NCBI GenBank assembly: GCA_964434235.1
Contig: CAYSUN010000002.1
Span: forward strand, 24,761 to 87,211
Length of the DNA stretch: 62,451 nucleotides
Reading direction: 5' to 3'
From: an uncultured Gammaproteobacteria bacterium
GTDB lineage: Bacteria > Patescibacteriota > Patescibacteriia > UBA11705 > JABHMO01
Shown: positions 51,001 to 54,000 of the stretch, in pieces
How the letters are laid out: every line of letters starts with the position of its first letter
How positions within the stretch are numbered: the first letter of the stretch is position 1
Made by a program: the position numbers

Positions 51001-54000
51001 AAAATTACTCAAAGAACAAAACAAAACTCGACATGATTTTGGACGAGAAAAATTTTTGCAAGAAGTTGAAAAATACGTTGAGACAACCAAGGATCGTATT
51101 CATTTACAAACTCGAAAAATGGGTTCAAGTCTTGATTGGAGTAGGGAAGCTTATACTTTGGACGAAGTTAGAAGTAAAGCTGTGAAAAAAGTTTTCAAAA
51201 TGATGTATGATGATGGACTTGTTTATCGTGGCTATCGAATTGTTAATTGGTGTCCACGTTGTCATTCAACTTTGGCTGATGATGAAATTGAATATAAAGA
51301 AACAACCAGCAAATTATATTGGATAAAGTACGGCCCTTTTACGTTGGCAACTACTCGCCCTGAAACGAAATTAGGCGATACAGCTGTGGCTGTTCATCCA
51401 GATGACAAAAGATACAAACACATGATTGGGAAAAAATATATGATTCCTGGTGTGCTTGGAGAATTTGAAGTAGTGGTTGTCGGTGATACAGCCGTTGATC
51501 CTGAGTTTGGGTCAGGCGCAGTGAAAGTTACGCCAGCGCATAGTATGGTAGATTTTGAGATTGCTGAAAGAAATGGTGTGCCATTGAAAAAAATTATTAA
51601 TGAAGATGGCAGAATGATGAATAATTGTGGTAAATATGCTGGTTTAACTACACTTGAAGCGCGGGAAGCAATTGTTGAAGACATGCAAAAAATGGGGCTG
51701 ATTGAAAAGGTAGAAGAAAATTATGAAAATAAACTTTCTGTTTGTTATCGTTGTAAATATATAATCGAACCTTTACCAAGTGATCAGTGGTTTATTGATG
51801 TAAATAAAAAAATTATTATAAAAGATAATAAATATTTCAAAAAAGGCGCTTCGCTTAAAGAAGTTGCTTTGCGAGTTGTTAACGATGGTGAAATAAAAAT
51901 TATTCCAGATAGATTTGCTAAGACTTATAATCATTGGATGGAAAATTTGCATGATTGGTGTATTTCTAGACAAATTTGGTTTGGGCATCGAATTCCAGTT
52001 TGGTATAAATATGGTCAAAAAATTGTAGTTGTGCGCCATGGCCAAGCTTTGAGCAATCTTCAGGGTCTTTGTGATTCAAAACCAGAAAATATAGAAAATG
52101 TTTTGACTGATGTTGGTCGCAGTCAAGTTTTGAAAACAGCCCAAGAATTAAAAGGTCAACAGTTTGATATTATTATTACTTCAAATTTTTCTCGAACAAG
52201 AGAAACTGCAAAAATTTTAGCTGAAGAATTAGGTGTTCCTGAAATTATTGAAGATGCACGTTTGGGTGAAGTTGGCATGGGTGAATTTAATGGTAATCCT
52301 GAACCTGGATTTACTCAATTCCGTTTGGGTGATTTTGAAAAATGGCACAAAAAAAATCCTAAAGGCATTGAATCTTTTGTTGAACTTAAAACAAGAGTTT
52401 GTTCAGCGCTTGATGACATAAAAGAAAAATATTCTGATAAAAAAGTTTTAGTTGTTGCTCATGGTGATCCAATTCGAATTATGCAAGGTTATGGTCGAAA
52501 AATTGATGATCAAGATATGTTTAATCTTGGTTATCCTGCTAACGCTGGGGTTGTAACAATTAAATTGCAATCAGATCAAATAAAAGTTTCTGAAGATGAG
52601 GTTAACGAATCAGGTTGGGAACAAGATTCAGATACTTTGGATACTTGGTTTTCTTCTGGACTTTGGACTTTTACTACGCTTTTACCCAAAGATTGGGATG
52701 GCAAAAGTTTTGATTTGCCAGAGGTAAAAAGGTTTCATCCAACTTCCGTGCTGGAAACTGGTTATGATATTTTGTTTTTCTGGGTAGCTAGGATGATTTT
52801 GATGACCACTTATGTTTTGGGTGAAGTGCCGTTTGAAAATGTTTATTTGCACGGTTTAATTCGAGATAAAGAAGGCGATAAAATGAGTAAATCAAAACCT
52901 GAAACAGCAATTGATCCACTTGAAGCTGGTCAAAAGTTCGGTTTTGATGCAGTGCGTTTGAGTTTGTTAATTGGTAATACAGCTGGTAATGATATTCGAT
53001 TGTATGATGAAAAAATTGAAGGTTATCGCAATTTTGTTAATAAACTTTGGAATGTATCTCGTTACATTATAACTGGCTCAGAACAAACTAAGTTTGATCT
53101 AGCTTCTTTCAAAAATTTGAGTTTAGCTGATGAATGGATTCTTTCCCGTTTTAATCGGCTTAAAAAAGATGTAATTAAATATTTAGATGAATATAATTTT
53201 TCTACAGCTGGAGAAGAATTAAAAGAATTTACCTGGAATGAATTAGCTGATTGGTATTTGGAAATTTCAAAAGTAAAGAATGCTGACAAAAATATTAGTG
53301 GTAGTATTTTAAATTATATTTTACAAGATTTACTTAAACTTTGGCATCCATTTGTTCCGTATGTAACAGAAGTTATTTGGCAACAATTGAATTCAGAAAG
53401 ATCGATTATGATTGCTGATTGGCCAAAAGTGGATAAACAGTTAATTAGCAAGAAAGCTGAGGATAATTTTGCTATAATAAAAGAGATAGTAGTAAAAATA
53501 CGTAACTTACGCGCGGAATACAAAGTTGAACCAGCAAAGTTGGTTTCAGCTGTTGTAGTTGGTGATGAAAATTTAATCAAAGACAATGAAGCCATTATTA
53601 AATTTTTAGCTCGCGTTGAAGAAATTGAGTATGCTAAGGAAAAACCCAGTCAGGCAGTTTCATCAGTTATTTCGGGTATGGAAATATTTTTACCATTGGC
53701 AGAATTGGTTGATTTTGAAAAAGAAAAAATTAGACTTGATAAGGAAAAAACAAATTTGGAAAAATACATTTCAGGTTTAAGCAAAAAATTAACAAACAAG
53801 GAATTTATAAGTAACGCACCAAGTCAAGTTGTGGAGATTGAAAAACAAAAGTTAGTCCAAGCTCAAGAAAATTTAGATAAAATTATTCAGCAGATAAAGA
53901 GTTAAAAGTTGAAAGTTTATAAAGTTAAAAGTAAAAAGTATTAAGTAAAAATATTGCTAAGATAATTCTATGTCAGAATTTTCCCCAGAAAACATTATAG

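Follow-up and report, generated by a model that had tools for sequence, protein, structure and literature searches.

The window, by which we mean the whole 62,451-nucleotide stretch of DNA that was analysed, carries a valyl-tRNA synthetase gene with a phosphatase nested inside it (valS, 50720..53905), a single complete open reading frame of 1061 aa on the forward strand, as are all features described below unless stated otherwise. The source organism is an ultra-small CPR bacterium of the Falkowbacteria type. Divergently upstream of valS, on the reverse strand (49269..50384), lies a gene for a 371-aa protein with a weak match to NrnA, an oligoribonuclease/pAp phosphatase (NCBIfam E 1e-6; 27.8 bits, cut-off 350); an NrnA-like gene holds this position in 14 related loci and is regarded here as a conserved partner within the clade, as context only.

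The host synthetase and its nested domain

The valS product exceeds the NCBIfam cut-offs for valine--tRNA ligase (NF004349, 1012 bits with a cut-off of 704; TIGR00422, 924 bits with a cut-off of 612) and contains the Pfam domains tRNA-synt_1, Anticodon_1 and Val_tRNA-synt_C, while the best structural match of its full-length AF2 model is the T. thermophilus ValRS 1GAX (TM 0.79, 32% identity). The HIGH signature is present as HLGH (aa 51-54, 50870..50881), with H51 and G53 invariant in an alignment of 18 ValRS sequences, and K721, S723, K724 and S725 of the KMSKS signature (aa 721-725, 52880..52894) are invariant in the same alignment. The CP1 editing motifs, TRPET (aa 212-216) and GSGAVKVTPAHSMVDFE (aa 264-280), span 51353..51559; residues T211, R213, P214, E215, T216, T271, P272, H274 and D278 do not vary among the 18 sequences, and from general knowledge of class Ia synthetases we take these motifs, including the editing aspartate D278, as the marks of an intact editing site. 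The anticodon-binding domain (aa 804-943; PF08264, E 2.3e-37) and the C-terminal coiled-coil tRNA-binding arm (aa 998-1060; PF10458, E 1.2e-11) occupy 53129..53899. Judged by this set of motifs and domains, valS is a bona fide, full ValRS. A BLASTP search of the window ValRS against the six-frame ORFs of the source genome, which is 100% complete, found one ValRS gene, so that the valS product, being the only one, must be the working enzyme; the same search found a single IleRS, without an insert, and a third, more distant class I enzyme that we take to be LeuRS.

Residues 435-623 (52022..52588) match His_Phos_1, the branch-1 histidine phosphatase family (Pfam PF00300, E 4.6e-35), with 121.5 bits against a gathering cut-off of 21.7 and over profile positions 1-188 of 194. 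The initial annotation had placed an intact histidine-phosphatase domain inside ValRS at 52019-52570 (residues 434-617), which agrees well with this match, and the motifs it quoted are all present (RHG at 439-441, LTDVGRSQ at 462-469, TSNFSRTRETA at 487-497, DARLGE at 512-517 and VLVVAHG at 576-582), with R439-H440-G441 and H581 at the residues it gave. Profile search and AF2 modelling of the insert both speak for that annotation: the excised insert by itself keeps an unchanged Pfam score for His_Phos_1, and the domain-only model has a pLDDT of 93.4 and a pTM of 0.89. More than 20 genomes assembled independently of one another show the same in-frame ValRS-phosphatase architecture, and an assembly artefact is therefore ruled out; a recent horizontal insertion can be rejected on the same grounds together with base composition, the G+C of the insert (0.32-0.35) being that of its flanks.

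The catalytic set comprises R439 and the nucleophile H440 of the RHG motif (52034..52042), the second phosphate-binding arginine R492 (52193..52195), the general acid E517 in RLGE (52268..52270) and the second catalytic histidine H581 in AHGD (52460..52462). These residues and N446 are invariant in 35/35 ValRS-embedded copies, in essentially all IleRS-embedded copies and in both halves of tandem copies. RHG is found in 87/89 IleRS-embedded copies, the two exceptions being truncated fragments; R492 is invariant in all 199 aligned domain copies and H581 in all embedded copies, and the IleRS copies all have either E or D at position 517. Relaxed selection on RHG, which the initial annotation had raised as a possible objection, is thus not seen in the orthologues, where the motif is invariant. 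By its sequence the insert is a complete branch-1 histidine phosphatase that lacks none of the catalytic residues, and it is apparently active.

No substrate can be transferred to the domain by homology, since it reaches no curated equivalog cut-off: it scores 62.5 of 350 for PspA, 75.2 of 162.9 for CobC, and, among the dPGM models, 98 of 225 for NF038349 (dPGM_arch), 35.6 of 81.7 for TIGR01258 and 44 of 261 for GpmB. In Foldseek the domain-only model is closest to PspA 4IJ6/4IJ5 (TM 0.80-0.81), PhoE 1H2E (0.80), GpgP 4QIH (0.79) and HFP 9MMH (0.78).

The N-terminal border of the insert is formed by the CP2-3 linker and the first CP3 strand (WCISRQIWFGHRIPVWY, aa 413-429, 51956..52006), located by alignment and motif position, and its C-terminal border by the return strand of the CP3 hairpin (IKVSEDEVNESGWEQDS) followed by DTLDTWFSSG (aa 638-647), where the Rossmann fold restarts (52577..52660), as aligned with ValRS lacking the histidine phosphatase (HP-less). 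In three HP-less ValRS (G017, G020 and G023) the empty site can be read as WYKGDE|IYVGE..GW.QD.DTLDTWFSS, and the stretch from PVW to DTLDTWFSS measures 209 aa in the window ValRS against ~20-35 aa in HP-less relatives. Strands 620-623 and 633-635 are present in the full-length AF2 model. In some relatives the hairpin is still a CxxC...CxC zinc knuckle whose cysteines flank the insert; in the window copy these cysteines are gone. CP3 is the subdomain after the CP2-3 linker (PMC7191050), and the yeast IleRS segment homologous to that linker, ARDWNVSRNRYWG, is part of the tRNA A76/reveromycin pocket (PMC7955072). On this alignment, the phosphatase is nested in a surface hairpin, CP3, directly past the linker that lines the tRNA A76/ATP pocket. 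In a sister lineage of the domain (G032, P0047, P0021) the phosphatase sits at a second insertion site, 22 aa further downstream, after SSGLWTFSTLGWP, and in one genome (G005) CP3 holds an unrelated insert of ~95 aa at the same site as the window phosphatase.

Conservation, recurrence and loss

Pairwise identity averages 0.45 in the phosphatase domain, compared with 0.52 in the anticodon domain and 0.42 in the ValRS C-terminus, so the insert is about as conserved as the anticodon-binding domain. It has been inherited together with the gene. Even the closest orthologue is only 55% identical across the phosphatase domain, and synonymous sites are consequently saturated. Conservation in the embedded copies falls on the generic residues that free-standing relatives also keep; the domain alignment contains no conserved residues specific to embedded copies that could mark an interface or a macromolecular substrate.

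The ValRS insert is present in 4/4 genomes of the same genus, in 8/11 other sampled genomes of the family and in two further families of the order. HP-less sequences fall within HP-bearing ones in the tree of the ValRS core, which requires two losses, and the insert is accordingly read from this tree as ancestral to an order-level Candidatus Falkowbacteria clade and as twice lost without replacement. Five genomes (G005, G008, G017, G020 and G023) have no His_Phos_1 anywhere, and since genomes have lost the insert without keeping any such gene, it is not essential for charging. Its loss in close relatives had escaped the initial annotation, as had the far wider occurrence of the nested domain in IleRS than in ValRS.

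The same phosphatase lineage is repeatedly nested in IleRS and ValRS of Patescibacteria. Among the best 150 representatives from a library of 1.84 billion proteins, 100 are long proteins, and 93 of these are IleRS (79) or ValRS (14). Across 301 sampled Patescibacteria species, at least 41 (at least ~14%) have His_Phos_1 inside an ORF of 900 aa or more. Tandem copies occur, often in IleRS, and in the domain tree the ValRS copies of Falkowbacteria group together in a separate clade, sister to the first copies of tandem IleRS inserts. In two genomes (G003 and G033) ValRS and IleRS each contain the domain, and many genomes also have free-standing His_Phos_1 copies; these observations rule out one general phosphatase per genome acting in trans. 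The several independent captures, two insertion sites, tandem copies and doubly modified genomes, together with the bias towards IleRS and ValRS, argue for a real functional coupling. In G003 (P0003) the phosphatase is accompanied by a probable ASCH module of the RNA-binding type, a weak match (E 0.0017).

Eight free-standing relatives from the class were inspected for context. One (G031) lies 140 bp upstream of ileS, and the other seven stand in unrelated surroundings, beside genes for SecA, radical SAM, AAA (ATPase), NUDIX, P-loop kinase, amino-acid kinase and DksA/TraR zinc-finger proteins. In the source genome no free-standing copy lies upstream of ileS (C2:4886-7768), whose neighbours are unrelated; its free-standing His_Phos_1 adjoins a 389-aa gene, presumably murF.

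The expectation of the initial annotation that similar fusions might already stand in CPR records proved right: they are labelled generically there, P0008 for instance as 'class I tRNA ligase family protein' (NCBI), while P0009 is entered as 'isoleucyl-tRNA synthetase' (JGI). In agreement with that annotation, the literature searched gave no characterised function, nor did it give a published description of a phosphatase-bearing ValRS or IleRS.

Candidate functions

We tentatively favour a reading in which the domain would be an active phosphomonoesterase that cooperates in cis with the synthetase, its substrate being a phosphorylated ligand entering the synthetic site. The first-choice substrate, put forward more hesitantly, would be cognate tRNA whose terminal A76 is blocked by a 2'/3'-phosphate or a pyrophosphate. 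The blocking phosphate would pass to H440, forming a phospho-histidine, and E517 would donate a proton to the ribose oxygen; with its 3' end free, the tRNA would next be aminoacylated by the synthetase that carries the domain. The initial annotation had likewise suggested tRNA 3'-end healing, and also nucleotide clearance, both of which are possible functions. As relatives live without the insert, its role would be one of conditional repair or counter-defence and not a step of normal aminoacylation. Stated more broadly, it is conceivable, and rather doubtful, that Patescibacteria possess an unrecognised conditional charging step in which a phosphatase in or beside IleRS and ValRS unblocks the 3'-terminal adenosine of the cognate tRNA (phosphate or pyrophosphate) during synthetase binding, or dephosphorylates the synthetase.

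In two reports, toxSAS enzymes pyrophosphorylate the tRNA CCA end and FaRel2 picks particular tRNAs (10.1101/2021.04.30.441581; 10.1101/2024.07.05.602228), and a blocked, tRNA-specific 3' end is plausible on that account. Several points weigh against the tRNA substrate. Healing tRNA-Val or tRNA-Ile alone would rescue translation solely against a tRNA-specific attack, and the generic character of the conserved residues offers no apparent signature of a macromolecular substrate in the embedded copies. No co-variation of the insert with RelA/SpoT-type (possible toxSAS) genes was found, long RSH genes being present in 57/61 genomes regardless; seven of the eight free-standing relatives inspected stand in unrelated contexts, and ATP sulfurylase, to which one relative of the domain is fused, has no tRNA substrate. 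We know of no branch-1 histidine phosphatase that acts on RNA 3' ends.

Alternatively, the domain could be a synthetase-bound nucleotide or pyrophosphate hydrolase that destroys PPi, AMP, 3'/2'-phospho-adenosines (pAp) or Ap4A-type side products at source, so that amino-acid activation is pulled forward or an inhibitor removed, a reading that we consider unlikely. The domain does adjoin the ATP/PPi site, its active site is of a small-molecule type identical in free-standing relatives, and its structural neighbours are all small-molecule phosphatases, of which CobC and HFP use ribosyl/ribityl phosphates. The relative fused to ATP sulfurylase is joined to another adenylate-forming, PPi-releasing enzyme, but the alignment gives that copy Q at the position of the general acid. 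Soluble family-I pyrophosphatase is absent from the source genome and rare in the class (14/61); however, a membrane H+-pyrophosphatase is found in 19/21 genomes of the order, with or without the ValRS insert, and HP-less genomes show no compensating soluble enzyme, so that there is no complementarity. A role as stand-in for a missing pyrophosphatase thus finds no support. Such a hydrolase also leaves unexplained why, among ~20 adenylate-forming synthetases, only IleRS and ValRS have the domain, and no branch-1 enzyme acting as a pyrophosphatase is known to us.

It is improbable that the insert is a hitch-hiking housekeeping phosphatase, CP3 being a permissive surface loop and the fusion having arisen for co-expression or by chance, with no link to charging. 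The unrelated insert of G005 indicates that CP3 accepts other sequences, the phosphatase is dispensable in close relatives and evolves faster than the catalytic core, and the gene neighbourhoods of its free-standing relatives are varied. Set against this are the near-absence of partners other than IleRS and ValRS among the long relatives, the repeated independent captures at two sites, the tandem copies and the genomes in which both enzymes are modified, the retention of invariant catalytic residues across the order, and the free-standing copy directly upstream of ileS in G031.

Quite improbable is a protein phosphatase acting on the synthetase itself, which would clear an inhibitory phosphate (for instance from a KMSKS-loop serine that a kinase, of the HipA type or another, had modified) or a phospho-histidine. 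Class I synthetases are targets of HipA-type kinases, and PGAM5, Sts-1 and SixA are protein phosphatases of the branch-1 fold; the layout in cis, with each of the modified enzymes of G003 and G033 bearing its own phosphatase, would suit self-protection, and dispensability would suit a conditional defence. The nearest relatives in sequence and structure are nevertheless small-molecule phosphatases and not SixA, PGAM5 or Sts, and no kinase partner was identified. A non-catalytic module, in which the fold would extend CP3 as a structural element or for the binding of tRNA or phosphate, is very improbable: many lineage-specific synthetase appendages are binding modules, and the domain takes the place of a zinc knuckle that is itself structural, but the nucleophile histidine, both arginines, the general acid and the second histidine are invariant over order-level divergence despite ~45% identity in the domain. 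The moonlighting metabolism envisaged by the initial annotation, with the domain as the cell's phosphoglycerate mutase in a reduced genome, is in effect ruled out, for although the archaeal dPGM model is its best NCBIfam match of the phosphatase type, it falls far under the dPGM cut-offs given above and is of the short, ~190-aa phosphatase type, and 59/61 relatives, including the source genome, have iPGM genes, usually two in tandem, independently of the insert.

Retention across an order at the rim of the synthetic site, repeated capture by the two branched-chain, editing class Ia enzymes, and presence in at least ~14% of the sampled Patescibacteria species imply that selection ties phosphate removal to Ile/Val charging, a link outside the predictions of current models. 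Aminoacyl-tRNA synthetases are among the best-studied enzymes. To our knowledge, phosphomonoester hydrolysis has no established role in the synthetase cycle or in tRNA charging. With the tRNA 3' end or the synthetase as substrate, the domain would represent a form of translation maintenance or counter-defence that is new, with synthetases repairing themselves against tRNA-specific end-modifying toxins or phage/host effectors; with a small nucleotide as substrate, it would be a new example of product channelling in reduced genomes.

Comparison with known systems

With canonical bacterial ValRS (1GAX; NF004349/TIGR00422) the window enzyme shares the Rossmann fold with HIGH and KMSKS, CP1, CP2, the position of the CP3 hairpin, the anticodon-binding helical bundle and the C-terminal coiled coil, and it differs in that its CP3 houses an additional enzyme of ~190 aa. 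The His_Phos_1-bearing IleRS of Patescibacteria, themselves uncharacterised (e.g., P0008 and P0009), have a phosphatase of the same lineage at the homologous CP3 site with intact catalytic residues, but the host is IleRS, the fusion is far commoner (79 vs 14 among the closest representatives) and it is often tandemly duplicated.

The nested domain has the fold, size and catalytic residues of PspA/iPSP1 (4IJ5), PhoE (1H2E/1EBB), GpgP Rv2419c (4PZ9/4QIH), HFP (9MMH) and CobC (6E4B), with 22-26% identity at TM 0.78-0.81; all five are free-standing proteins, whereas the window domain is nested in another enzyme. Its fold is His_Phos_1, neither HAD nor metallophosphoesterase, with no homology to the known folds of RNA 3'-phosphatases (the T4 Pnkp-type class), so that any relation to RNA 3'-end healing phosphatases may be one of likeness of action, with no membership claimed. 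Other synthetase add-ons, such as CP1 editing domains, trans-editing factors of the AlaX/YbaK type and the GNAT-bearing IleRS (NF040702), likewise attach a second catalytic activity; those hydrolyse or modify aminoacyl esters, whereas the added chemistry predicted here is phosphomonoester hydrolysis via a phospho-histidine.

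The nested phosphatase and its insertion site

The long ORF at 50720..53905 on the forward strand (valS) encodes a protein of 1061 aa, which NCBIfam recognises as a whole as a valine--tRNA ligase (NF004349, 1012 bits against a cut-off of 704; TIGR00422, 924 bits) and in which Pfam places two stretches of tRNA-synt_1 on either side of a His_Phos_1 domain (residues 435-623, E 4.6e-35, 121.5 bits against a cut-off of 21.7), followed by Anticodon_1 (residues 804-943) and the ValRS C-terminal arm (residues 998-1060). The histidine phosphatase which the initial annotation had read inside ValRS is therefore borne out by profile search, each of the motifs it quoted being found at its given residue, and the excised piece (52019-52570) retains an unchanged His_Phos_1 score when searched alone. 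The insert has the same G+C content as its flanks. The HIGH (HLGH, residues 51-54) and KMSKS (721-725) signatures and the CP1 editing motifs are all present and invariant across orthologues, and no second ValRS was found in the genome to which the window belongs (1.13 Mb, estimated to be 100% complete). In the full-length AlphaFold2 model (pLDDT 78), which among PDB entries most closely resembles T. thermophilus ValRS (1GAX, TM 0.79), the phosphatase is the best-modelled part (pLDDT 81-94). Judged by motifs and model, both host and guest look functional.

The insert is flanked by WCISRQIWFGHRIPVW-Y, ending at residue 429, and DTLDTWFSSG, starting at residue 638, with 209 aa separating PVW from the D of the latter. 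A sister family shows the empty site: the ValRS of its genomes G017, G020 and G023 has a short insert-free hairpin (WYKGDE-IYVGE..GW.QD.DTLDTWFSS). Together with such hairpins, a CxxC ahead of the phosphatase and a CxC behind it, retained in several relatives, indicate that the domain is nested at the tip of a zinc-knuckle hairpin, the element known as the CP3 subdomain in IleRS structures (PMC7191050, PMC7955072). CP3 is preceded by the CP2-3 linker (ARDWNVSRNRYWG in yeast), which helps to form the pocket for tRNA A76 and the inhibitor reveromycin A (PMC7191050, PMC7955072), and this, by analogy with IleRS, puts the anchor of the phosphatase on the edge of the active site for synthesis in ValRS. 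The linkers to the phosphatase are short, the N-terminal one consisting of five residues.

At exactly this CP3 site the phosphatase-less ValRS of G005, a genome of the same family, carries an unrelated insert of ~95 aa (L056, residues ~437-530) with no Pfam match, and these ValRS seem to have a hot spot for insertions in CP3. The 1212-aa ValRS of G003, of the same genus (P0003; L012 / L035), has an extra module of ~135 aa behind the phosphatase (residues ~632-765), the single Pfam match of which, slightly under the cut-off (E 0.0017, 19.4 bits), makes it a probable ASCH domain, a PUA-like fold of the RNA-binding type.

As regards gene neighbours, the divergent partner of valS in 14 related loci is a 371-aa gene, here on the reverse strand (49269-50384), whose weak match to NrnA (oligoribonuclease/pAp phosphatase) falls far short of the cut-off. 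Directly after valS, 12 related loci have tyrS, which in the window (59540-60751) comes after two large genes (53970-59208), probably a lineage-specific insertion.

Distribution and history of the insert

All four of the other genomes from the genus have the embedded domain, as do 8 of the 11 further genomes sampled in the family and two more families of the order, the public records of these genomes being assigned to Candidatus Falkowbacteria or the Parcubacteria group. Six related loci (L030, L032, L035, L038, L040 and L046) come from Falkowbacteria-like MAGs (binchicken / SRP co-assemblies) titled 'uncultured Gammaproteobacteria bacterium', probably wrongly. When conservation of the RHG motif was checked in 21 aligned ValRS orthologues, R439, H440 and G441 proved invariant, as did N446, R492, E517 and H581, and the catalytic set is intact in 35 ValRS-embedded and 89 IleRS-embedded copies, truncated fragments excepted. 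Mean pairwise identity is 0.45 in the domain, 0.63-0.65 in the Rossmann halves, 0.52 in the anticodon-binding domain and 0.42 in the C-terminal arm; lying between the last two, the domain is under constraint like that on accessory parts of an essential enzyme.

When a tree was built from the ValRS core, leaving out the insert, the four insert-less sequences were nested among insert-bearing ones, requiring two changes, and the simplest reading of these sequences would be a single old gain followed by two losses, one in another family of the order (f3) and one in G005. No His_Phos_1 was found anywhere in the insert-less genomes G005, G008, G017, G020 and G023, and neither life nor basic Val-tRNA synthesis consequently depends on its function.

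Identity of valS to its relatives (L010-L029) is strongly mosaic along the gene, which suggests that segments have been recombined or replaced among Falkowbacteria. In comparison with G011, the Rossmann and CP1 parts reach 77-82%, the phosphatase 49% and the C-terminus 35%; for CP1 alone, identity is 76-79% with five relatives and 50-54% with others whose N-termini are equally similar, and the core is merely 53-55% identical to those of G001, G002 and G004 of the same genus.

A search of 1.84 billion representative proteins (threshold E 0.001) returned 10,758 relatives of the domain; 100 of the best 150 are longer than 300 aa, and 93 of these 100 are class Ia synthetases with the domain inside, 79 being IleRS-like and 14 ValRS-like. 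In an even sample of 301 Patescibacteria species, a relative of the domain at E <=1e-12 occurs in 163, and in at least 41 it forms part of an ORF of 900 aa or longer, where the host is expected, from the best 150 relatives, to be IleRS or ValRS. Similar fusions were indeed already present in CPR annotations, as had been supposed, in public records under no other name than 'class I tRNA ligase family protein' or valyl-/isoleucyl-tRNA synthetase, and the statement that no characterised function was known agrees with a full-text literature search, which turned up no publication describing a histidine phosphatase within any aminoacyl-tRNA synthetase.

In several IleRS the domain is duplicated in tandem with both copies intact, and four stretches of it appear in one ValRS fragment. 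Two genomes of the class (G003 and G033) have the domain in ValRS and IleRS alike; in the window's own genome the IleRS lacks it. A tree of the domain unites the ValRS copies of Falkowbacteria in one clade (26 rows, support 95). Adjoining it are ValRS copies that use a second site, located 22 residues further downstream behind SSGLWTFSTLGWP (G032, P0047 and P0021), and as sister group the tree gives the first copies of tandem inserts in IleRS. Other ValRS copies (P0007, P0011, P0012 and P0014) lie elsewhere, and this scatter, together with the second site, points to several captures, exchange between the IleRS and ValRS paralogues and at least two insertion points.

Of the free-standing relatives in the class, eight were placed in their gene context. 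That of G031 is found 140 bp upstream of ileS and in the same orientation; the remaining seven adjoin SecA, a radical-SAM gene, an AAA (ATPase) gene, NUDIX, P-loop (AAA_33) kinases, an amino-acid kinase or a DksA/TraR-type zinc-finger gene. The closest of them (L069 of G027, 4300-6536) has AAA_33 P-loop kinase genes on both sides, a neighbourhood that recalls PFKFB-type or end-healing kinase/phosphatase pairing. P0143, a close relative of 568 aa from the representative library, has an N-terminal fusion to PUA_2 and ATP sulfurylase, an adenylate-forming, PPi-releasing enzyme, and its general-acid position aligns to Q. No signature specific to embedded copies was found; their conserved residues are the generic family set, also present in free-standing copies, and so bear no mark of a special interface or substrate.

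Candidate substrates

The domain reaches none of the curated NCBIfam equivalog cut-offs (dPGM, PspA, CobC, GpmB), so its substrate cannot be inferred by homology. Its site is intact, held by short linkers beside the A76/ATP pocket, long conserved and dispensable, and it is specifically and repeatedly tied to IleRS and ValRS. The embedded phosphatase is probably active, going by its residues and predicted fold, and would act in cis on something visiting the synthetic site. Our leading, though tentative, candidate is a blocking 2'/3'-phosphate or pyrophosphate on A76 of the cognate tRNA. Blocking modifications of the tRNA 3' end exist and can be tRNA-specific, as reported for the toxSAS FaRel2 (10.1101/2021.04.30.441581, 10.1101/2024.07.05.602228), and a role in conditional repair or counter-defence would fit the dispensability. 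Long RelA/SpoT genes occur almost everywhere among the relatives surveyed for an RSH link, so that their distribution says nothing for or against one; outside the window, the same genome has two adjacent RelA/SpoT-type genes of ~500 aa (C32:4569-4895 and C32:6024-6356), a pair kept through the order, most other families of the class having one.

Somewhat less probable is an adenine nucleotide or PPi produced at the site. Few genomes of the class (14/61) have a soluble family-I PPase, and the window's own lacks it; a membrane H+-PPase is nevertheless encoded by 19 of 21 genomes in the order, irrespective of the insert, and insert-less genomes show no PPase compensation, so that complementarity lends no support to a substitute pyrophosphatase. 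Less probable again is a fusion that arose by chance or for co-expression, with the two activities uncoupled. A general trans-acting enzyme, one per genome, is contradicted by the tandem copies and by genomes in which both synthetases are modified. What probability the other readings leave falls to a small phospho-metabolite connected with Ile or Val.

Dephosphorylation of the synthetase by itself is improbable, a structural role alone decidedly more so, and phosphoglycerate mutase scarcely credible: the moonlighting metabolism of the initial annotation, if taken to mean a glycolytic mutase, had to be rejected, the dPGM cut-offs not being reached and cofactor-independent PGM genes, usually a tandem pair, being held by 59 of 61 relatives with or without the insert. 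The window's own genome has such a pair elsewhere (C19:7399-8901 and C19:8962-10494, ~530 aa each), which recurs in most genomes of the class.

Comparison with known enzymes

In conclusion, valS is a real, conserved and probably active enzyme-in-enzyme, a synthetase with an added catalytic domain. New here are the apparent vertical history of the insert at the level of the Falkowbacteria order, with its two losses, the total lack of His_Phos_1 in genomes without it, the second ValRS insertion site, where a sister lineage of this domain is inserted, and the negative complementarity results for PGM and pyrophosphatases. Modelled alone with AlphaFold2, the phosphatase gives a confident fold (pLDDT 93.4, pTM 0.89) which superposes (TM 0.78-0.81) on PspA (4IJ5/4IJ6), PhoE (1H2E), GpgP (4QIH) and HFP (9MMH), all small phosphatases of ~200 aa, and PDB sequence search agrees with these matches. 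The components, a canonical bacterial ValRS and a histidine phosphatase of the PhoE/PspA type, are ordinary, and it is their pairing that is unusual.
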